Positions 31,612 through 64,000 of a DNA stretch of 64,000 bases are shown piece by piece. Source of the stretch: Eledone cirrhosa. Taxonomy: Eukaryota. The notes beneath the pieces are model-generated. The model was not told the origin of the DNA, did no database searches, and was given only the letters and a program-made list of their open reading frames with translations. Every line of letters starts with the position of its first letter. The stretch's first letter is position 1. Where the stretch lies: the NCBI GenBank assembly GCA_964016885.1, contig OZ024742.1:363630001-363694000 (forward strand), read 5' to 3'. Position numbers and translations under genes: made by a program.

Positions 31612-31654
31612 GTCACTGAAGAGGTCACAGAGTGTGTGACGAAAGAACTACGAC
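31612..31654 (+). ncRNA. Minimal type I hammerhead ribozyme, PLE-A pLTR
   Basis: gtca-CTGAAGA-g-gtcaca(gagtg)tgtgac-GAAA-gaac-TA-cgac. One stem I mismatch here; stem I is perfect (gtca/tgac) in copy 2. Confidence 0.8.
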
Positions 31655-48310: not shown

Positions 48311-49795
48311 TACACGCATACACACACACACATATTTATATGTGCGTGGTTTTGTATACCTATGGTAAGTGTTTTGCGGATGATTGTGTATGTACGTATT
48401 TGTTTGCGTGTATGTATTTATTTATTTCTATTACTTCTGTATTGTATTTATTTACTTTGTTCTTAACTCTGTAGCGGAGATTCATTCGGTCTCCTTGTTA
48501 GAATTTTACTCTACGACTTCTGCTATACCATTTACGTGGTTTTGTATTTGCGTGCTTTGTTCTCCACGCTCCACATATGACGTATTATCTTCGTTTTTTT
48601 CGTTCATTGCCAGAGAACGTCTCTAAAAAATCTGAGGCAATTTCGGCTTGTAAACATAAAGTGCACAAAACTTTCCTGTATTACAGCCCCACGTTATACC
48701 CTAACGGATAGTACGATTTATACGTGGATATTTTACGTCTTGATGTGGTAGCTAAGTATATGTTTTCTTTATACCATTACTTATTTGCATAGGGAAGTAT
48801 ATTTTACCCGTATGTTTTGTGAAGGTACGTAATCCTTCTAGTACGTATATTTGATTGTTTATGTTATGGCGTATACTTTTATATATTCTGGTACATATGG
48901 TTTGGCTATGTGTATACGGGAGTTTTGCCTCTGTGTGAGTATGCAGGTTCGTACGTATGTAGGGTGTGTGTATATGTGTACTTCTTGTTTTGGTTGACAT
49001 ACGTCTCCGAACATTCGTGATTTTACATGTAGGTATGTGTGTGCGCTTGTTATATACGTATTTATTTATTTATATACGTTTATATAATTATTTATTTATT
49101 AGTATACACGCATACACACACACATATTTATATGTGCGTGGTTTTGTATCCCTATGGTAAGTGTTTTGCGTATGATTGTGTATGTACGTGTTTGTTTGCG
49201 TGTATGTATTTATTTATTTCTATTACTCCTGTATTGTATTTATTTACTTTGTTCTTAACTCTGTAGCGGAGATTCATTTGGTCTCCTTGTTAGAATTTTA
49301 GTCTACGACTTCTGCTATACCATTTACGTGGTTTTGTCTTTGCGTGCTTTGTTCTCCACGCTCCACATATGACGTATTATCTTCGTTTTTTTCGTTCATT
49401 GCCAGAGAACGTCTCTATGAACCACCTAAGAGAACATTAGTCTACGACCTCTTTTATACCATAAACGTGGTTTTGTCTTTGCGCGTAATTGTTTTTCACC
49501 GCTCCTATTAATGACGTATTATATTCGTTTTTTCCCGTTCTTTGCCAGCGAACGTTTCTACGAACCAAAGTATCGTCTTCCTGTCTTCCTCCAGTTGCAA
49601 CGTTTTTTGAAATATCCACTTCTGCGTTCACAGATTGACTTTGTTAGTTTCAGAAGATCCCGTTAAGGGTGAAAGCAGCGATTCTTTGTTTAAACTTTAA
49701 TCTGTTATTTTAATAAATATTTGCTCTACGGTTCTCTTATATATTTGATATATATTTATCCTTATCGAACCCTCTTTGGATCTTAGTCTTCAAAT
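48308..49795 (+). mobile_element. Heavily 5'-truncated Naiad-like PLE (family N3) with partial tandem duplication
   Basis: 48625-49660 is homologous to 62870-64000; 48308-48624 is a direct repeat of about 49100-49416; HHR at 49630-49705. Confidence 0.85.
49630..49705 (+). ncRNA. Type I hammerhead-like fold with CAGAAGA (U4A) core and extended stem I
   Basis: acagattg..agttt-CAGAAGA-t-ccc(gttaa)ggg-t-GAAA-gca(gcgattctt)tgt-TT-aaact-t-taatctgt, followed by AATAAA. Confidence 0.72.
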
Positions 49796-49832
49796 TTATT
49801 ATTATTATTATTATTATTATTGTTATTGTTAT

Positions 49833-51322
49833 TCCTTGAATCTCAGTCATTGATGTTGGTTAACTGGAAAGTCCGTTGGATTGAATATCAAGCCACTACC
49901 TGCAGCCTCAGATATTCAGGACGTATCGGAGGGTTCTTGCCGTTCCAAGCAAGCATGCCTTTTGAAGCGTTCCAAAAAGCGTGAAGGGGCCGATTTTCTT
50001 TAACCATCCCTGGAAACCTTTGGAGATAGTCCCCAGTGCGCCTATGACAATCGGGATCACTTTGACTTCATGGCAGTTCCAAATCCTTTTCACCTCCCAC
50101 TTTAGGTCCTGGTATCGGTTAATTTTCTCCCTCTCCTTCTCTTGCACTCTCGTGTCGAACGGGCAGGCCACATCCACAATCAGGCACGATCTTTTTTCTT
50201 TGTCCACAACCACCAGGTCAGGTCTATTGTGTTCCAGTTTTTTGTCCGTCTGTATCCTAAAATCCCACAGCACCTTCACCTGACTGTTCTCCATCACCGC
50301 CTCTGGCCTATGCTCATACCATTTCTCAGAATGTGGTAGATTGTTTACTTTGCACAGGTGCCAGTGGATCACCCTGCCCATCACATCGTGTCTCCAGCCC
50401 TTATAGTGGGTCTGGGCTAGGTGTTTACACTCGGACACAATGTGAGCCACAGTCTCCTCTCTCTCTCCACAGATCCTGCACAGTGGGCTAGCCTCCTCCT
50501 TGTAGATATGGTGCTTCAACCACTTCGTTTTGAGGGCCTGCTCCTGCGCAGCCATTAGCATTCCTTCTGTAGCCTTTTTGAGGTCTCCTCTTCTCAACCA
50601 GTTCCATGTCTGTGGATCTCTAAATTCAGTTTTCTCAAAGAAGGTACTATGAAGGGATTTTCCCTTAAGGCTGCTCTTCCTCCTTGATGTTATTTCCTCC
50701 TTGGGTATCCCCTGGCCTACTCTCCCCTCCTTCAGTACAGCTCTGAGCATTGGCTCCTTACTATAGGTCACGTATTTGTATAGGTTGTTTTTCTCCATCT
50801 GAACACAGTCCTCTATGCTGATAAGACCTCTTCCACCCTCAGATCTCCTTAGGTAGAGTCTATCGACATCACTCCTCTTGTGGAACATGTTGTAGATAGT
50901 CAATAGCTTCCTAGTCTTCCTATCCATTTCTTTTTGTTCAGCAACATTCCATCTCAGAATTCCCGCACTGTACCTAATAATAGACACAGCTCGGGAATTT
51001 ACTGCGCTTATGGCATTTCTGCTGTTCAGATGTGACTTCAATACGCTCCTTACTCTCCGAATGTATTCAGTTCTTAACAATTCCTTCATTTTTTTGTTCT
51101 TTATGCCATCAGCCTCCAGAACGCCCAAATACTTGTATCCTTCCTCAGAGTCAATTTCCTTTATCATCTCACCTGTTGGTATCTGGATCCCGTTACTTCT
51201 GCTCAACCTACCCCTCCTCATCACAATGACTCCACATTTACCAATACCAAACTGCATACATATATCACTGCTGAAAATACGGACAGTGTCAACAAGCACA
51301 TCCAACTCCTTCTCACTTTTCC
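49833..51322 (-). mobile_element. 5'-truncated R4/Dong-clade non-LTR retrotransposon in a (TAA)n tract
   Basis: (TTA)n on both flanks (49796-49832, 51342-51396), short 3' UTR, and RT-CCHC-REL coding region. Confidence 0.85.
49908..51305 (-). CDS. C-terminal RT + CCHC zinc knuckle + restriction-like endonuclease (truncated just after the catalytic DD motif)
   Basis: FGIGKC, YKYLG, GGRGL, CRICGEREETVAHIVSEC, RHD, RPDLVVVD..IVDV, KINRYQDL, PIVIGALG. 465 codons uninterrupted; no genuine start codon. Confidence 0.88.
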   Translation of the reverse strand: MDVLVDTVRIFSSDICMQFGIGKCGVIVMRRGRLSRSNGIQIPTGEMIKEIDSEEGYKYLGVLEADGIKNKKMKELLRTEYIRRVRSVLKSHLNSRNAISAVNSRAVSIIRYSAGILRWNVAEQKEMDRKTRKLLTIYNMFHKRSDVDRLYLRRSEGGRGLISIEDCVQMEKNNLYKYVTYSKEPMLRAVLKEGRVGQGIPKEEITSRRKSSLKGKSLHSTFFEKTEFRDPQTWNWLRRGDLKKATEGMLMAAQEQALKTKWLKHHIYKEEASPLCRICGEREETVAHIVSECKHLAQTHYKGWRHDVMGRVIHWHLCKVNNLPHSEKWYEHRPEAVMENSQVKVLWDFRIQTDKKLEHNRPDLVVVDKEKRSCLIVDVACPFDTRVQEKEREKINRYQDLKWEVKRIWNCHEVKVIPIVIGALGTISKGFQGWLKKIGPFTLFGTLQKACLLGTARTLRYVLNI

Positions 51323-51340
51323 CTTTTTTTTTTTTTTTTC

Positions 51341-51455
<115 letters not shown>

Positions 51456-51984
51456 ATATAAGGAAAAAAGATGAAAATTGGAAATGCAACTTGAGTCTTT
51501 TTAAAAATATTATTTGGTTCCTTTACCGGTTTCGTAGTTCTTGTGCTTTTCAAAAGTAGAATTGAGATGGAGGGTTTGTGTTTTTTTCCGCATCTGGTTG
51601 GTGTTCGAATGTTACTTCTGTTTTATATGGAAAAAAGTGGGTCGAAATGCTAGGATTTTAGAAAAGTAATTTGGTTGGATTGATGACAGTCATGTGAATA
51701 AGTATAGTAAATTTCGCACAAGTTCGCGTTACAAAGTTTTTATTATATTTGCAAATAAATATTCTTTTAAAAGACTCCAGTTAAATTTTTGATTTCATCT
51801 TTTTTCCTTATACTTTCACGAGTGTAGGACATCTCGTTTTTTTTCATTTTGTAAAAAAACCTCATTTTCTAATACATACCCATCACACGAAGACTGAAAA
51901 TTCCACCAAAGTCTCTACAAAACGACAACTCACTGAATCAGGACATAGTAAATTTCTCATACCATGAACTACCGCAACCTAAAC

Positions 51985-55302: not shown

Positions 55303-55353
<51 letters not shown>

Positions 55354-55481
55354 AAGTTATATTTAAAAGTGTTGGGTTACAACTAGTAAATATTTATAAC
55401 TGATATAAAAGCACTCGACAAATATTTGGAGTATATTTACAATATTAAATAAATGGAAAACTATATTTATAAAACCATATT

Positions 55482-55547
55482 TATTTCATTATATATATTT
55501 CGGGGATATCATATTAACAATATGCTATGCCTTCATCAGACAAAATA
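55482..55547 (-). ncRNA. Type I hammerhead, N1 downstream pLTR
   Basis: Minus strand: tattttgt-CTGATGA-a-gg..catatt(gtt)aatatg..cc-GAAA-tatata-TA-atgaaata. 8-bp stem I with two G-U pairs; palindromic stem III. Confidence 0.8.
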
Positions 55548-56501
55548 CAATATAAACAGTTTTATAGATAAATAGATTCTACATACCGTAATAAACATCG
55601 ACTTCATTTGAAGAGGTTTACGCTAGCAGTGAACATTTTATACAGAGAGACAGAAAGAGAGAAAAAAAAGAAAGAAAGACAAAACGAAGAAAAGGAAGAA
55701 AAAGAAGAAAAAGAAGAGATGCATGTAACAAAATAGAGAGATGGAAAGATAGATAAAGCGAAGAGCTTCATGTAAAGAAACAGAAAGAGATATATATATA
55801 TAGAGAGAGAGGAAATAGAGATAGATACATATATATATAGAAAATTAGGTAGTGGGAGGTCATTTTGAGTAAGTGTATCAATGATACATTTATTTATTTA
55901 TTTATTTATTTAGCTCAAGTATTAATGTAAGGGAGATATATATAGAGAAAAAAATATAGAGAGAGGAAAAAAAAAATAGCGAGAGAAAGAATTTAAAAAT
56001 AGCCAGACATATTCGAGGCGTAAAAAACCCTATGTTTTAATGTATTAGTATTTATAAAACTTACACTATATTGTAAATATCAGTATTCCTGAATGAAACA
56101 AGTATCCATAATGTGTGAAAATTAATTATCTTATGTTTAGTTTTAAAAAATGCATATGTTTATGTGACAGCTACAAACATCCATGCTAATCCAACTGATT
56201 CACTCTGCAAACTCTAGGTTACCGGAAAACATTCTCAATGTGGTATAAAAATTTGAGCGTATTATTATTCCTGTCATTATTCTACAAGATTATCTATCAA
56301 GTAGAAATAGAGAGCAGATTTCAATATACTAATAAAAATATATATTATAAACAAAACTAAAAATATAAAGATAACAATAATAATAATAAGTAAAATATTA
56401 CGAAAGAATATTAATAATAAAAATATTACATATTAAAAATACTACTTATTAAAAAATATTACGTATTAAAAATTTACATATTAAAGATATTAAAAATTTT
56501 T

Positions 56502-57112: not shown

Positions 57113-59326
57113 CTACATTTTAAATTTAAATTTATATTTAAACGTTGAGTTTAATCTATGTTTGCAACAACTGAATAAATTTGTCCGTAGGTTAAGGGAA
57201 TTTTTAGATTTTAGTATAAAGAATATCTCCTCTGCGCAGAAGTCACATGTCTCGGAGGATGAATTAAAAGGAATCCCTCTTGAGACTATATTCCAAGCCG
57301 TCGAATATCTAACGTTATCTAGCTTAAGTTGCCAGAGTACGCCTGATAGTGCCGTTGAAGATTTTTTACTTGGATCTGTGAAAGAATTCTTGTGGTTATT
57401 ATAGCGAAGTTTAAATTCCGTCGATGTGGAACCGACGTAGTTAAAATAATTAGAGTCAGTATTAACATTACAATTGTATACTATATTTTTAACTAAGCAG
57501 TTGTTATTTAACGGACATTTAGATCTATCTCTACAGTTACATTTGTTAACTTGTATATTATTTATGCTATTATTAGTAGGTTTTAAGTTCCTATTATTTA
57601 TTCTATTAATATTTTGTGCTAAATTTTTGGTGGATGAGTAGGTTAATTTAATTGTATGCCTATTGAAGATTGAGTGATACCTATGTGTTCTAGGGAAGCG
57701 ATTATCAAGAGCTTTGAAAAATAATTTAGCGATGTGGGTTTTAATGTTTAGTGAGAAAGGGGGGGCAAACCAAATTATGTTCCTAGTTCTATTTCTTTTT
57801 TGTCCTTTGGAATTATTGTAATGCTTTCTATTATAGTTGTTAATGTTGTTGCCGTAATTAAAAAAGTTGTTACTTTGTTTAGTTTGTCTATCATTATCTA
57901 TGTATACAATCTTATCAGCATATCCTGCCCTAGCTAGTGCATCATTATAGTACTGGGCCTTTTCGTCAAAAATCTTTCTATTCGACGAGATCCTAGAGAT
58001 ACGTTTTTGGACTGAGTTTACTATAGTGTTTTTGACAGATCTGGGGTGGTTAGAGTTAAAGTTGACATAGTTTAAGTTTTCATTCAACTTGTGAAAAGGA
58101 TAGTGGAGACATGTGTTGAGATTTAATGTTATATCTAGGAAATTGACTATTCTATGGTTGTTCTCAATTTCTATTTTAAGGTTAAAGTAATTAAAAAATT
58201 TTGTAATTTGTTTACATTTTCTATTTAGTTCAGGGTTATTATTATTAATAAGTAAAAGCATGTCATCCCTATATAAACCTCCGGTAGTACCAGGTATTTT
58301 CCTATGTAGCGAATTGATTAAAAATAAGCCCACAAGGTCAGTTACCTGAGCTGAGTCGGAAGATCCCATAGTTATGTCAAAATTGTTATCTCTATCTGCT
58401 CTGGTCCATAATTTGTCATTAAATTCTATCAAAGTTTTCCTAGCCGATAATATAATATGCATTTCTTTGCTAGTTAGGTCAGTATGTTTGAATGCGTAAT
58501 TTAGTGCCTTATTTAGTAGACTAGGGGTAATAGAAGAATAATAGTTAGCTATATCAAGTTGAATAAACCTATTATTATTGTTATATTTAATTTGCCTAAA
58601 CCACTCAACAACCTCTCCAGTTCCCTTCCACAAGCTCAGGTTAGATACACAGTCCAAGTTCTTAATTTGCTGTATCACCCTGTCAAGAATGTTTTTGCTT
58701 AATTTGCCCAGGTTCGATTTTGAAGGTGCGATCAATCTAACTGGCAGGTCATTTTCAAAATTCCTCTTGTGGTCCTTCATATTGATCTTCGGTTTCCTGG
58801 GCACGAAAGGTTGTGTTCTGTTCTCAATTTCCAACTCGTGCATTATACAAGATGCTTCGACATTCATTTTCTCAAGTTCGGCCTTATCAGCTACCTTGTA
58901 CTTTTTCCTCAGCTCTTTCAGTATGAGGCCCTTATACATGTCTTTCCGCACTCCATAGAGGTTGTTGGTCTTGTCAGATTTCACCAAGATCTTCTCAGTT
59001 TTCTCTAAGCTCTCAATGTTATCCTTAATGCCTTTCAGATATTCCTGGCCTTTAAAGTTTCTCTTGAATTTGACCCCTTGTATGATAGAAATTATATCGT
59101 TTTCAAAGTCAGATAAAAGTTTGTTAGGGGGTGGATTTCTTTTAAATTTGAAAACTTTGTTTAAGTCCGAGATATTTTCGTCTGCATTAGATTTATCAAA
59201 GTGGAATGCACGCCACCTGATTCTCCTTATAAAAGAGTCAGATTTATCTATTAATTGTTTTACAAAGTCTTTGTTTCTAGGTAGAGGTATGTCTTTTAGA
59301 GAGGAAGTAATCTTAAAGAATTCCAT
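57113..59326 (-). CDS. Intact 737-aa PLE polyprotein: RT + GIY-YIG endonuclease (Naiad-like)
   Basis: ATG start; SLKDIP, FIRRIRWRAF, KSDKT, KDHK, VRLIAP, LDIANYYSSI, MGSSDSA, LYRDD, FLDITL, SNHP, CNC..CPL..CL, IVY..YVGST..RYNNH, CDFC, CKH. Confidence 0.95.
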   Translation of the reverse strand: MEFFKITSSLKDIPLPRNKDFVKQLIDKSDSFIRRIRWRAFHFDKSNADENISDLNKVFKFKRNPPPNKLLSDFENDIISIIQGVKFKRNFKGQEYLKGIKDNIESLEKTEKILVKSDKTNNLYGVRKDMYKGLILKELRKKYKVADKAELEKMNVEASCIMHELEIENRTQPFVPRKPKINMKDHKRNFENDLPVRLIAPSKSNLGKLSKNILDRVIQQIKNLDCVSNLSLWKGTGEVVEWFRQIKYNNNNRFIQLDIANYYSSITPSLLNKALNYAFKHTDLTSKEMHIILSARKTLIEFNDKLWTRADRDNNFDITMGSSDSAQVTDLVGLFLINSLHRKIPGTTGGLYRDDMLLLINNNNPELNRKCKQITKFFNYFNLKIEIENNHRIVNFLDITLNLNTCLHYPFHKLNENLNYVNFNSNHPRSVKNTIVNSVQKRISRISSNRKIFDEKAQYYNDALARAGYADKIVYIDNDRQTKQSNNFFNYGNNINNYNRKHYNNSKGQKRNRTRNIIWFAPPFSLNIKTHIAKLFFKALDNRFPRTHRYHSIFNRHTIKLTYSSTKNLAQNINRINNRNLKPTNNSINNIQVNKCNCRDRSKCPLNNNCLVKNIVYNCNVNTDSNYFNYVGSTSTEFKLRYNNHKNSFTDPSKKSSTALSGVLWQLKLDNVRYSTAWNIVSRGIPFNSSSETCDFCAEEIFFILKSKNSLNLRTNLFSCCKHRLNSTFKYKFKFKM

Positions 59327-59506
59327 TTTTCCAGTTATAATATAAAGCGCTCAACAGTATTGGAGCAAGGTACATGTAAAGTTATATTTAAAAGTGTTGG
59401 GTTACAACTAGTAAATATTTATAACTGATATAAAAGCACTCGACAAATATTTGGAGTATATTTACAATATTAAATAAATGGAAAACTATATTTATAAAAC
59501 CATATT

Positions 59507-59572
59507 TATTTCATTATATATATTTCGGGGATATCATATTAACAATATGCTATGCCTTCATCAGACAAAATA
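59507..59572 (-). ncRNA. Type I hammerhead, N1 upstream pLTR
   Basis: Identical to 55482-55547 at an offset of 4025 bp; predicted cut about 190 nt upstream of the ATG. Confidence 0.8.
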
Positions 59573-60096
59573 CAATATAAACAGTTTTATAGATAAATAG
59601 ATTCGACATACCGTAATAAACATCGACTTCATTTGAAGAGGTTTACGCTAGCAGTGAAAATTTTATACAGAGAGACAGAAAGAGAGAAAAAAAAGAAAGA
59701 AAGACAAAACGAAGAAAAGGAAGAAAAAGAAGAAAAAGAAAAAGAAGAGATGCATGTAACAAAATAGAGAGATGGAAAGATAGATAAAGCGAAGAGCTTC
59801 ATGTAAAGAAACAGAAAGAGATATATATATAGAGAGAGAGAGGAAATAGAGATAGATACATATATATATAGAAAATTAGGTAGTGGGAGGTCATTTTGAG
59901 TAAGTGTATCAATGATACATTTATTTATTTATTTATTTATTTAGCTCAAGTATTAATGTAAGGGAGATATATAGAGAGAAAAGGCATAGCATATTGTTAA
60001 TATGAAAAGGCATAGCATATTGTTAATATGATATCCCCGAAATATATATAATGAAATAAATATGGTTTTATAAATATAGTTTTCCATTTATTTAAT

Positions 60097-60127
<31 letters not shown>

Positions 60128-60422
60128 ACTAAAATACTCAAATATATACATGTACATATACACATGTACGTATGGGTTATATCGAGCACTAATAATAATG
60201 TTCGATTCGCTTGTAAACGAACAGCCCGAAGCTGTGGTGCCGGTGACCAGTTATCAGTGAGTCGCTATTTCACCTCCCATCTGGTCATCTACTTCTAGTC
60301 TTCTAGTCATCTGGTCCATCTGTCAACATATCAACTAGACCATTTAGTCTACAAACCCACATGACACCATATCAACCAGCTTTCAATCTGCCACCCCCTC
60401 TGTCTGTATTTCTATTAATCCT

Positions 60423-60702
60423 CTAGTCTACCAGCTCAACAGTCTCTATGACAACCAGACGTCTATTCTACCAGCCCAACTATATCTATGACAACCAGAC
60501 GTCTAGCCTACCACCCCAACAGTCTCTATGACAACCAGACGTTTAGTCTACCAGCTCAGCAGTCTCTATGACAACCAGACACATAGTCTACCAGCCCAAC
60601 AGTCTCTATGACAACCAGACGTCTAGCCTACCAGCTCAACAGTCTCTATGACAACCAGACGTCTAGTCTACCAGTCCAACTATCTCTATGACTAACAGAC
60701 GC
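60423..60702. repeat. 40-bp minisatellite, about 7 copies
   Basis: Unit CTAGTCTACCAGCTCAACAGTCTCTATGACAACCAGACGT. Confidence 0.92.
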
Positions 60703-61216
60703 CAGAATGCCCGCTAGACCTCAATTATACTAGCTCACCTGTCAATATATTAACCAGACTTCTAACCTCTCACTCTATCTCTCTCTAGACTTATAATCCA
60801 CCAGTCAACCTGTTCATATATCAACTAGACATCTCATCCCACATGTTTATATACCCTATGGTCTTCTCATGAAACAGTCCCTTGGCTAGCCGTAAACTAC
60901 TAGTCTACCTTCCAACTTGATTTATATATAAATCTAATGACTGGTGTCAATATATTTAAAGCAAAGAATCAATAAAACAGCGATGAATACAATTTATTGG
61001 CCTGTCCTGTCGTTGAATTCTTTTAAGTCGAATGTCATGAACAAAGCTACTGCCCAGGGATGACACTTTTACTGCTTTACAGGACATGGCAGTTGGTTGT
61101 GAAGTAAATAAAAGGAAACAGCCACGGACCTGTATAAAAGGTGAAAACCGGAGCATTACATATCAATAACGAATCCGAGGCCTTATTAATTTGTTTCAGG
61201 TTTATTTAAAATTGGT

Positions 61217-61275: not shown

Positions 61276-64000
61276 ATTTATTAATATAACAGATTAAAGT
61301 TTAAGCAAAGAATCGCTGCTTTCACCCTTGACGGGTTGTTCTGAAACTAAAAAAATTAATCTGTGAACGCAGAAGTAAATATTTCGAAAAACGTTGCAAC
61401 CGAATGAAGACAGGAAGACGATAGTTTGGTTCGTGGAAACGTTCCCTGGCAAAGAACAGAAAAAAACGAAGATAATACGTCATTAATTGGAGCGCCCTCT
61501 TGCACTGTGGAACAATTGTTTCGCGGTGATTGATTGGTTCAACGGCATATGCAACAAGGAACATTGCCGTTTTATCCAATTCGACATCAATAATTACTAC
61601 ACCTCCATCACTTTACCACTTCTCCTTAGAGCTATCAATTTCGCTAAAAACTCACAGTGGTTAAGGATTTCGAAGTTGATTTCATCCTCAATGCCCGTAA
61701 GTCGGTGATTAATTTCGACGACTCTATTTGATTAAAAAATCTAATAGTACCCCATTCGACGTGAGTATGGGCGCCAGCGATTCTGCAGAGGTTACTGATC
61801 TTATCGGCCTTTTCCTTCTTTTCTCTATCAAGGAAGAATTCCCAAACGTGGGCGGTGGTTTGTACCGTGATGACGGTCTTTTAACCATGACAAAGTGCGG
61901 CCCACATGCTTACGACAGGTTCAGAAAAGAACTCACAGCCTTCTTTAAATGCTTCAACCTCTCCATACAGGTTGAGGCCAACCTCTCGGTCGTTAATTAC
62001 CTCGACGTTACCCTCAATATGTCGAATGGCTTGCACTACCCGTATAGAAAGCCGAACGATACGCTTAATTATATAAGTAAGCATTCTAACCATCCTGCCA
62101 GCATAACCGAGAACCTGGTAAGAAACGTTTCTTTGAGGCTTTCCCGTCTATCTACAAACGAGAATATTTTCACCGACCATTCCACATATTACAATGAAGC
62201 TCTTGCTCGGAGTGGATTTGTCGATAAGGTAGCATATACAGAGTATGAGCATAGACCTAGGAAAAATAGATCCCGACGCATTATATGGTATAGTCCACCA
62301 TAAAACATGGAGTTGGCCACACCATTAGCTAAGATCTTTCTCTCCCTTATTATGAAACATTTCCCCCCAGCACATAAAGATAGTAACATTTTTAATAGAA
62401 ATACCATTACCATTTCTTACTCTACGACTCCTAACCTTGCACATAACATTAAAGCTTCATATTTAGCTAAATTACCTAGCCGTAGGAACACATGCAACCC
62501 TGTAGCTAGTACTAACTGTAATTGTAGGAATCGGGTTGACTGCCCCCTATCCGGGAAATGCCTCTCTAGTAACATTGTCTACAAATGTAAGGTTGAAACA
62601 TCCACGTCCCGTAGGGCCTACATAGGGTTAACCGCCAATAGATTCAAGCAGCGTCTTTACATGCATACACATTCTTTTCTTAACCCTTTAAGAATGAATA
62701 TGACGTCACTTTCAGCTTATATCTGGAGTCTAAAAAACAACCACACCCAATATAAGTTACACTGGGAGATCCTAGCTTAGGCTAGATCGTATAACGAAAA
62801 AAAAGACCATGTGACCTCTGCGCCGCTGAAGCCCTGGAAATACTCTACGCCAAAGACCACATCTTAAACAAAAGATCTGAGGCAATTTCGGCTCGTAAAT
62901 ATGAATTGCACAAAACTTTCCTGTATTACAGCCCTATATTATACCCTAACGGATAGTACGAACTATACGCGGGTATTTTACGTCTTGATGTGGTAGCTAA
63001 GTATATGTTACGTTTATACCATTACTTATTTGTATAGGTAAGTATATATTACCTGTATGTTTTGTGAAGGTACGTATACTTTCTCGTACGTATATTTGCT
63101 TGTAAGTGTTATAGGCGTATATATTATATTATATATATATTGGTACATGTGCATATGGTTATGTGTATACGTGAGTTTTGCGTCTGTGTGAGTATGCGGG
63201 TTCGTACGTATGTAGGGTGTGTGTATATGTGTACTTTGTGTTGGTTGACGTACATTTAGCGAACATATGTGTATTTACATGTAGGTATGTGGGTGGGTGC
63301 GTTATATATGTATTTATGTGTGTTTATATACGTTTATATAATTATATGTATACACACACACACATATATATATATTTATATGTATTTGGTATATACGTTC
63401 GTATGTGTGCGGATACAGGCGTTGCGTGGGTTCTCTATGTGCGTGCGTGTGTTTTTTTTTGCGTACGTGCTTGTATTTGCATACCCATGGCGAGTGTTTA
63501 CGCGTATGCATGTGTATGTACATATTTGGTGCATGTATATACTTAATTTTTGTTGATTTCGATTACCTCTGTAATTTATTTACATTATTCTTAACTCTGA
63601 AGCGGAGAATCATTCGATTTCCTAAATAGAATTTTAGTCTACGACTTCAGTTATACCATTTACGTGGATTTGTCTTTGCGTGTAATTTTTTCTCATCGCT
63701 CCACATACTGACGTATTATCTTCGTTGTTTCCGTTCATTACCAGAGAACGTCTCCACAAACCACCTAATAGAATATTAGTCTACGACTTCATTTATACCA
63801 TAAACGTGGTTTTGTCTGTGCGTGTAATTGTTTTCAACGTTCCAAATAATGACGTATTATCTTCGTTTTTTTTCCGTTCTTTGCCAGGGAACGTTTCCAC
63901 TAACCAAAGTATCGTCTTCCTGTCTTCCTTCGGTTGCAAAGTTTTTCGAAATATTTACTTTTGCGTTCACAGATTGATATTTTTAGTTTCAGAAGATCCC
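61276..64000 (+). mobile_element. 5'-truncated Naiad-like PLE (family N3) with inverted pLTR arm; runs off the right edge
   Basis: 61276-61493 is an inverted pLTR end (HHR at 61289-61364, minus). It is followed by the RT/EN remnant, the 3' UTR and a pLTR with an internal tandem repeat of about 125 bp. The window ends inside the HHR (AGTTT-CAGAAGA-TCCC). Confidence 0.9.
61494..62956 (+). pseudogene. Naiad-type RT + GIY-YIG, disrupted
   Basis: FIQFDINNYYTSI, MGASDSAEV, LYRDD, YLDVTL, SNHP, CNC..CPL..CL, IVY..YIG, CDLC. TAA at 62301, TAG at 62778, and frameshifts. Confidence 0.9.

Follow-up and report, generated by a model that had tools for sequence, protein, structure and literature searches.

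A motif with the layout of a type-I hammerhead ribozyme, but with A in place of U at core position 4, lies at positions 49630-49705 of a 64,000-nucleotide (nt) stretch of the Eledone cirrhosa genome (assembly GCA_964016885.1, contig OZ024742.1, forward-strand positions 363,630,001 to 363,694,000; hereafter the window). It is part of the pseudo-long terminal repeat (pseudo-LTR) of N3, a Penelope-like retrotransposon that we place in the Hydra clade. Because this A (A4) replaces a catalytically needed U, the ribozyme is likely to be weak or dead, and the reading that we consider likeliest, and on the sequence evidence probable, is that of an impaired or dispensable (crippled, at best slow) ribozyme which is retained in a terminal repeat of the element's RNA.

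In copy 1, on the plus strand, the motif opens with the 5' strand of a distal stem I helix (ACAGATT, 49630-49636), which pairs with 49699-49705 and is identical in N3 and its sister family N3b. It is followed by a 9-nt internal loop (GACTTTGTT, 49637-49645), which varies between subfamilies, and by the 5' strand of the proximal stem I (AGTTT, 49646-49650), whose first base, A2.5 at 49646, is the putative 5' end of the capped RNA. The 5' core box CAGAAGA (49651-49657) has A4 at 49652, where hammerheads carry U4. Helix II (49658-49670) consists of CCC (49659-49661), the loop GTTAA (49662-49666) and GGG (49667-49669) between U10.1 (49658) and U11.1 (49670), and leads into the 3' core G12 A13 A14 (49671-49673). 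In helix III (49674-49690), AGCA (49674-49677) and TGTT (49687-49690) enclose a 9-nt loop (49678-49686) and form the A15.1-U16.1 pair plus three further pairs, one of them G.U in this copy. The layout puts the predicted cleavage site between U17 and A1.1 (49691-49692), after which the 3' strands of stem I, AAACT (49692-49696) and AATCTGT (49699-49705), follow with TT between them (49692-49705 in all). The upstream part of the copy-1 pseudo-LTR, which is also the 3' untranslated region (UTR), occupies 48311-49629 on the plus strand. Its direct repeats D8, D10, D11, D12 and D15 match 62870-64000, and the flank upstream of the motif is common to genomic N3 copies. The same part contains a direct repeat (48311-48610 and 49103-49402, 96% identical, 792-nt spacing), interpreted either as an internal duplication or as a pair of partial tandem units.

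Two further copies had been placed by an earlier sequence-only reading of the window at 61289-61364 on the minus strand and at a C3 of 63990, and both were found there. Copy 2 (61364-61289, minus) is about 90% identical to copy 1 and reads CAGAACA, combining A4 with a G8 to C change and A10.1. The same reading described the hammerhead fold around the core as complete. The layout of copy 1 over 49630-49705 agrees with this, but its helix III 3' strand is TGT, with one G.U pair, and not TGC, which is the form of copy 2 and of the majority of genomic copies; copy 3 (63969-64000, plus) ends with the window after CAGAAGATCCC, which leaves its fold beyond the window edge. In copy 1, three helices surround the junction in the type-I order (stem I, core, helix II, core, helix III, site, stem I). 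The G12 A13 A14 core, the A15.1-U16.1 pair and a residue 17 other than G (H17) are all present, and they are invariant or nearly so across 29 aligned copies. When the 5' core box is set against C3 U4 G5 A6 N7 G8 A9, the six other positions fit and only position 4, an A, departs. The energy of the hammerhead structure ranges from -6.8 to -9.2 kcal/mol, or from -11.8 to -14.2 kcal/mol with the helices enforced.

Genome counts, which cover the whole 3.0 Gb assembly containing the window, gave 26,338 exact matches to the A4 pattern CAGANGANCCC-N4-6-GGGNGAAAGC and 890 to the CTGA (T4) version of the same pattern, most of the latter being palindromic junctions. Family-wide fixation of A4 in N3, proposed earlier from the three window copies, is therefore confirmed. 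Thirty T4 loci were read, of which 26 were head-to-head palindromes, two were other inverted junctions and only two had a sense context; in the palindromes, two 5'-truncated copies are joined at position 4, with T on one strand and A on the other. CTGA matches with a base other than T four bases upstream numbered 186, and 49 of the first 100 listed had the proper GTTT context. Extrapolation from these first 100 of 186 gives roughly 90 genuine T4 copies in GTTT context, or about 0.4%. Any base other than A at position 4 was present in 1,156 copies, with 75 T, 13 C and 12 G among the first 100 listed. Since T4 in sense context is no commoner than C4 or G4, it represents mutational background and not a T4 subfamily. 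Natural T4, C4 and G4 copies that are otherwise apparently family-typical do exist in the genome, and at one locus (L120, contig 2, minus) the 76-nt N3 motif equals the majority form save for T at position 4. The 890 CTGA matches were also considered as a canonical sister subfamily, which is ruled out by the loci read being palindromic junctions, and a diverged T4 copy (L059/L094) was rejected as an ancestor, being one decayed copy without a family. The last 23 nt of N3 occur 40,409 times against the 26,338 core-pattern matches, indicating that in a large fraction of copies the truncation falls inside the motif or shortly after it; many N3 copies are just 70-170 nt long. An exact-pattern scan of metagenome contigs gave no match to the N3 motif.

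The assembly contains 567 exact 21-nt palindromes centred on core position 4 (GGGATCTTC-A/T-GAAGATCCC), in which two very short N3 copies meet head to head and each arm reaches the element 3' end (for example in L032, L036 and L046, at about locus position 1500); of the 50 places listed, 49 have A:T at the centre. Such junctions are also found in the older family N3b, and one of their strands looks like a canonical CUGA core. They may result from the annealing of two converging complementary DNA ends at the near-palindrome TTC-N-GAA. A transcript start at A4 (TCAG) was tried as another explanation and rejected, because bases other than T before C3 are at background level (550 copies) and TTC-N-GAA annealing explains the centre equally well.

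N3b differs from N3 at N7, which is U, in loop 2 (GCTTA or ACTTA), in loop 3, which starts GAAATT, in one extra T in the 3' internal loop of stem I, and in its 3' end, which reads ACTAATAAT. A pattern search for N3b returned 27 CAGATGA and 5 CTGATGA cores among 32, the CTGA ones being junctions, and in a sample anchored on the 3' end only (119 matches, 30 loci read) A4 was present in 13 of the 14 sense-context copies and T in one. The mean pairwise identity of sampled copies is 0.914 in N3 and 0.853 in N3b; N3b is therefore older, and the A4 state predates the family split. The majority letters of the two families differ in ten columns, namely seven loop columns, N7 and two loop indels, so that both hammerhead loops differ, and there are no differences in 36 stem, 12 core and 2 helix-II-flanking columns. 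Two other structures were tried and discarded: pairing of G5-A9 with the 3' half of loop 3, for which the apparent covariation between N7 and loop 3 vanishes with more N3b copies, and a hepatitis delta virus-like 5'-cleaving fold, for which there was no match to such an Rfam family.

A relaxed hammerhead descriptor of our own, in which position 4 is left free and all three helices are obligatory, produced one match in the real 1.41 kb pseudo-LTR and none in 2000 dinucleotide shuffles, both strands being searched, and the N3 pseudo-LTR contains no other CUGANGA...GAAA candidate. In File S2 of PMC8557442, all 26 Hydra-clade hammerhead rows read ctga, and in 14 of them the core is followed by T, a helix II of 3-5 bp with a loop of 3-8 nt (mostly 4), and then T-gaa. 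The U...U flanks of helix II are therefore a norm of the clade and not a second defect of N3, and their presence both in many Hydra-clade hammerheads and in N3 argues for true descent of the N3 motif from a hammerhead. The rows of octopus and sea-cucumber elements in the same file have ctgaaga and T at the cleavage site, and N3 has the same core, with A at N7, and the same site U, except for position 4. The motifs in these rows lie about 100 nt from the consensus element 3' ends. By its layout, the N3 motif is a real descendant of the Hydra-clade hammerheads.

It is very improbable that the motif is a chance look-alike, that is, a conserved pseudo-LTR piece such as a promoter or a reverse transcriptase (RT)-binding site that happens to resemble a hammerhead. 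Such a resemblance would be compatible with the lack of any Rfam hammerhead match at the gathering score or at E values up to 10, including a 131-nt search, with the lack of covariation, and with a predicted fold that is no more stable than shuffles (z -1.14). However, Rfam also misses a natural T4 copy, and the miss is therefore due to the architecture and not to A4. In addition, none of the 2000 shuffles yields the motif, which sits at the usual place of the hammerheads of the clade and fits their layout piece by piece, including the U...U flanks and the N7 A and site U of the octopus and sea-cucumber rows.

The similarity to the Hydra-clade hammerheads (Craig et al. 2021) extends to the type-I form, the sense strand and the location near the 3' end, to a core followed by U, a helix II of 3-4 bp with a 4-5 nt loop and U-GAA, and to a 4-bp helix III starting with A, a site residue U, A or C, and a stem I of 4-7 bp. 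Their host elements also resemble that of the N3 motif in the C-terminal GIY-YIG domain, the CxCX5C linker, the DKT motif and the (TA)n targets. In contrast to CUGA in the 26 rows, both N3 and N3b have CAGA, and the helix III loop is 9-10 nt long in N3 but 1-3 nt in the rows, where short loops favour dimers, so that helix III of N3 can close as a monomer. Unlike the listed Hydra-clade hammerheads, N3 adds a distal 7-bp stem I helix and is present in tens of thousands of copies. The minimal metazoan Penelope hammerheads (Cervera and de la Pena 2014, PMC4209133) are like N3 in their pseudo-LTR location and in reaching thousands of copies per genome, and they have low intrinsic activity, but they differ by a canonical core, a long helix II, a conserved G10.1-C11.1 pair, hardly any helix III and action as dimers.

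A different conserved fold, to which the hammerhead would only be an ancestor, is also unlikely. In such a structure UUUCA (2.3 to A4) would pair with U11.1-GAAA (to 15.1), and the resulting extended helix II hairpin would lock away C3 and G12-A14, with A4 being selected for its pairing with U11.1. For the N3 motif, the hairpin is predicted as the structure of minimum free energy, with a probability of the A4-U11.1 pair of 0.39 in N3 copies against 0.00 in four natural T4 copies, and among the copies position 10.1 varies (U, C, A) while U11.1 is constant. However, the probability of this pair is 0.08 in the single N3b copy folded, canonical Hydra-clade hammerheads with U4 normally have U11.1 already, and the hairpin leaves helix III and the 3' strand of stem I unused, although they are equally conserved. 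The hammerhead fold lies just 0.6-3.0 kcal/mol above the minimum, and thermodynamic folding does not decide between the two structures.

The genomic copies have two classes of 3' ends, both against (TA)n, at 23-27 nt and at about 120 nt past the predicted cleavage site. In the window, the short end, TTATTTTAAT(AAAT), is at 49706-49719 on the plus strand, and about half of the copies read stop here against (TA)n. The "tail" of about 95 nt up to the long end (49716-49810, plus) doubles as the start of the 5' UTR in full-length copies, in which the long version continues into the 5' UTR; at one locus (L008) an ATG lies 200 nt downstream of C3, 42 nt past the tail end. In Poseidon of the green anole, reverse transcription starts from two adjacent internal sites, and the interval between them is the "tail" (PMC11167929). 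By comparison, we infer that the two 3' ends of N3 would correspond to two internal reverse-transcription start sites, the short end being the first of them.

If cleaved RNAs were copied to their ends, copies would be expected to begin at A1.1. Counts of 23-mers were 40,409 for the one that begins with A1.1 and 39,241 for the one across the cleavage site, and a base other than T precedes A1.1 in 820 of the 40,409 copies (2.0%), so 5' ends are not enriched at the predicted cleavage site. By contrast, the 5' boundary at A2.5 is strong: a non-templated base precedes A2.5 in 2,734 of 20,692 copies (13.2%), compared to 17,958 with the templated base; the first 100 non-templated bases listed were G (56), A (23) and C (21). 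When 20 of the G-type places were read, the sense arm began exactly at A2.5 in all of them. Eighteen consist of an inverted partner arm of variable length, the G and then the sense arm, and in the other two the copy is simply truncated, next to unrelated sequence or (TA)n. In a 3'-anchored sample of 30 copies, drawn from the same contig 1 stretch as another flank sample and hence not independent of it, the 5' boundary was at least 44 nt upstream in 16 copies, between -9 and +3 of C3 in 10, between +22 and +30 in 4, and at A1.1 in none. As known from work on LINE-1, an untemplated 5' G is a trace of reverse-transcribed capped RNA. From the untemplated G before A2.5 we infer that capped transcripts start with the first base of stem I, and with this start and the 3' priming sites the RNA would carry the motif at both ends.

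Such an RNA would have a 5' copy of the motif without the distal stem and a complete 3' copy just before the priming sites. Efficient cleavage would strip the cap together with 46 nt at the 5' copy and would separate the priming region at the 3' copy. The change of U4 to A could thus be tolerated or even favoured, the activity being predicted, from the mutagenesis of other hammerheads, to be strongly lowered. The fold would be kept for a non-catalytic role at the transcript ends, in template recognition or in template jumping, and the motif would be retained since the same stretch of about 75 nt would form the terminal repeat of the RNA. Point mutagenesis by Ruffner et al. in 1990 is said to mark U4 as essential. 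According to section 8 of PMC3088659, U4 touches the A6-N7 phosphate. In a tertiary-stabilised hammerhead, all single and double mutants of the CUGA turn have low activity save for the C3/G8 swap (PMC9901934). In Poseidon, hammerhead knock-outs had no effect on insertion in vitro, and no reads ended at the cleavage site (PMC11167929). Poseidon (Frangieh et al. 2024, PMC11167929) is similar to N3 in having a hammerhead shortly upstream of two reverse-transcription start sites, but it has a canonical core that overlaps the start codon, and a tail of 30-40 nt, whereas the two ends of N3 are about 95 nt apart and its ATG is 200 nt past C3. Together, the 5' boundary pattern and the U-turn mutagenesis favour an attenuated or inactive ribozyme.

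The motif might instead be a naturally active core variant, with A4 supporting self-cleavage after U17 through a contact between the stem I loop and loop 2 or through a protein of the element, and this we regard as possible rather than probable. Cleavage would then process read-through or tandem transcripts. The other core positions, the A15.1-U16.1 pair, H17 and the helices are unchanged over two families that are 85-91% identical internally, with variation in N7 and the loops, as an active ribozyme would have it. The Schistosoma hammerhead is an example of a fast type-I ribozyme with a similar architecture of stem I and loop 2. The 5-bp stem I, the internal loop and the 5-nt loop 2 of N3 resemble those of fast type-I hammerheads (PMC4209133), and the Poseidon hammerhead cleaves only with its protein, which implies that weak cores can be protein-assisted (PMC11167929). 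Natural core variants with reduced yet real activity are known as well (section 8 of PMC3088659), but the U-turn mutants of PMC9901934 are poorly active even in a tertiary-stabilised hammerhead, and no U4 variant is among those named in the section 8 text of PMC3088659. Furthermore, the copies show no excess at A1.1 (2.0% versus 13.2% at A2.5), and with a start at A2.5 cleavage would cost the cap, 46 nt into the RNA. A working, probably protein-assisted A4 hammerhead, which we consider rather improbable, would be the first natural lineage to replace the U-turn uridine, conserved in two families and tens of thousands of copies.

Known natural core variants (Perreault et al. 2011, PMC3088659) are akin to N3 in that rare departures from the core are tolerated in some contexts. 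Those named in the section 8 text are U3-A8, A6C, insertions after A6 and after A13, and U15.1-A16.1, with none at U4; the same section gives U10.1-U11.1 as the best tolerated mispair. As described there, these variants are single loci or small groups, whereas N3 is a lineage of 26,000 copies. The literature searched names no natural hammerhead lineage with A4, although Figure 5 of PMC3088659 and a 2017 survey of Penelope variants, which lie outside the parts covered, could hold one.

Several observations weigh against an impaired ribozyme as the explanation. Both families keep 12 of the 13 core positions, H17 and every helix, with variation at N7 and in the loops, and such a pattern is what is expected of a working hammerhead. 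The conservation test is itself weakened by ascertainment, since the search patterns fixed many columns; in the ascertainment-free columns there are 5 substitutions in 22 loop columns versus 0 in 29 stem and core columns (p about 0.01). Covariation support for the helices is absent among the 29 sequences: over 17 pairs, 95.1% of cells are paired, which is not above shuffles (223/500), and there is one compensatory cell. The helices are invariant between N3 and N3b, however, and this makes covariation uninformative. In 5 of the 20 G-type places the G is possibly templated by the inverted partner arm, while it is untemplated in the others. Finally, cleaved RNAs may never serve as templates, and canonical Penelope hammerheads likewise leave no trace at the cleavage site (PMC11167929).

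The role of hammerheads in Penelope-like elements is a puzzle: every canonical clade has them and they are conserved, although in vitro their activity is weak and insertion can proceed without it. N3 belongs to a clade whose described members all have a canonical core, and it has reached tens of thousands of copies with a substitution at a core position that is essential according to mutagenesis, the rest of the fold being kept. If its ribozyme is indeed weak or dead, the element spreads without efficient self-cleavage, and if catalysis is dispensable in vivo, the fold would be conserved for another job. Conversely, if A4 proves active, the "invariant" U4 would be unnecessary in the right tertiary or protein context, providing a new data point for ribozyme chemistry. 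The natural T4, C4 and G4 controls in the genome, together with a fossil read-out of RNA ends, which points to a start within stem I, make the question directly testable.

The host element of the motif had been described as Naiad-like, a label that proved wrong: its endonuclease motifs are C-terminal to the RT and it has Hydra-clade signatures. In the window, a 5'-truncated, stop-broken open reading frame (ORF) of N3 at 61496-62780 on the plus strand comprises part of the RT, a Cys cluster and GIY-YIG. It is adjoined at its 5' end by the inverted pseudo-LTR fragment that carries copy 2, and it is followed by the N3 3' UTR or pseudo-LTR, 1.2 kb long, up to copy 3 (62781-63968, plus; repeats D10, D11, D12 and D15). 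The translations show a single ORF with RT and then a C-terminal GIY-YIG, the order of the Hydra clade. An alignment with ten database homologues revealed an invariant C-x-C-x5-C (C54, C56, C62), Y75, Y88-x-G90, R99 and H103, and near-invariant C152-x2-C155, E158, N170 and C179-x-H181. SDKT, with DKT in place of DKG, is present in the translations of N3 and of a second element in the window (family B, below), and RWR, not RWK, is found near the N3 N-terminus. The (TA)n targets, the pseudo-LTR, the tail and the inverted 5'-truncated partner are also those of Hydra-clade elements, and the hammerhead near the 3' end conforms in position and layout, its CAGA core alone failing to be canonical. For comparison, section 11 of PMC8557442 gives as features of the clade the CxCX5C linker, CxxC and CxH around E and N, DKT, (TA)n and the C-terminal endonuclease.

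In an AlphaFold model, the C-terminal domain (mean predicted local distance difference test score 74, about 90 in the core) has a beta-beta-alpha-alpha-beta-alpha core, and its best matches in the PDB, although weak (E 0.3-1), are all GIY-YIG nucleases (T4 EndoII, I-TevI, Hpy188I and UvrC). Pfam and PDB sequence searches of the ORFs gave no match. The homologue search returned unnamed proteins carrying PF26215, one of them from a cephalopod record, and the Atlas neighbours, as a lead only, are animal clusters with HTH_animal, DUF8422, GIY-YIG and RVT_1. The longest N3 frame in 12 stretches of 9.9 kb around young copies encodes 403 amino acids (aa). According to PMC8557442, Naiads have an N-terminal GIY-YIG endonuclease joined via a CxC domain to a C-terminal RT. 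The N-terminal part of N3, a 292-aa open frame, showed no GIY-YIG motif over its first 120 residues. The Hydra-clade signatures, the C-terminal endonuclease and this lack of an N-terminal motif leave the Naiad label unsupported, and on its ORF order and signatures N3 is a Hydra-clade Penelope-like retrotransposon. As described in PMC8557442, Naiad and Chlamys elements are like N3 in their pseudo-LTRs, tails, inverted 5'-truncated partners and (TA)n targets, and they are very successful without a canonical hammerhead. They have an N-terminal endonuclease, CxC and IFD domains and mostly no hammerhead-like fold, whereas N3 keeps the fold with one core base changed.

A second Hydra-clade Penelope-like element, family B, has an open 745-aa frame at 57113-59350 on the minus strand and flanking direct repeats at 55346-55945 and 59371-59976, which are 92-99% identical. 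Its protein is 38-42% identical to that of N3 and has RT motifs followed by a Cys cluster and GIY-YIG. The hammerhead of family B, starting at 55539 and 59564 (minus), has a canonical CUGAUGA...GAAA core and, at helix III, a palindromic UAUAUAUA. It is of the minimal Penelope hammerhead type (PMC4209133) and lies about 200 nt upstream of the ORF, the same relative place as in N3. This canonical motif at the equivalent place of a 41%-identical neighbour also supports the identity of the N3 motif as a hammerhead. Further CUGA-N-GA...GAAA motifs are located at 31616 (plus), 39440 (minus) and 33994 (plus). Two of them are near-identical in opposite orientation (CTGAAGAG-GTCACA...TGTGAC-GAAA) and one is CTGATGA...GTCCGAAACG; to judge from these sequences, all three probably represent hammerheads belonging to further Penelope-like families.

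Directly downstream of copy 1 there is a 530-aa open frame (49908-51500, minus) that by eye looks like the C-terminal part of a non-LTR retrotransposon protein of the long interspersed nuclear element (LINE) type. Seven tandem copies, repeated every 40 nt, occupy 60342-60741, between the family B element and the inverted N3 fragment.

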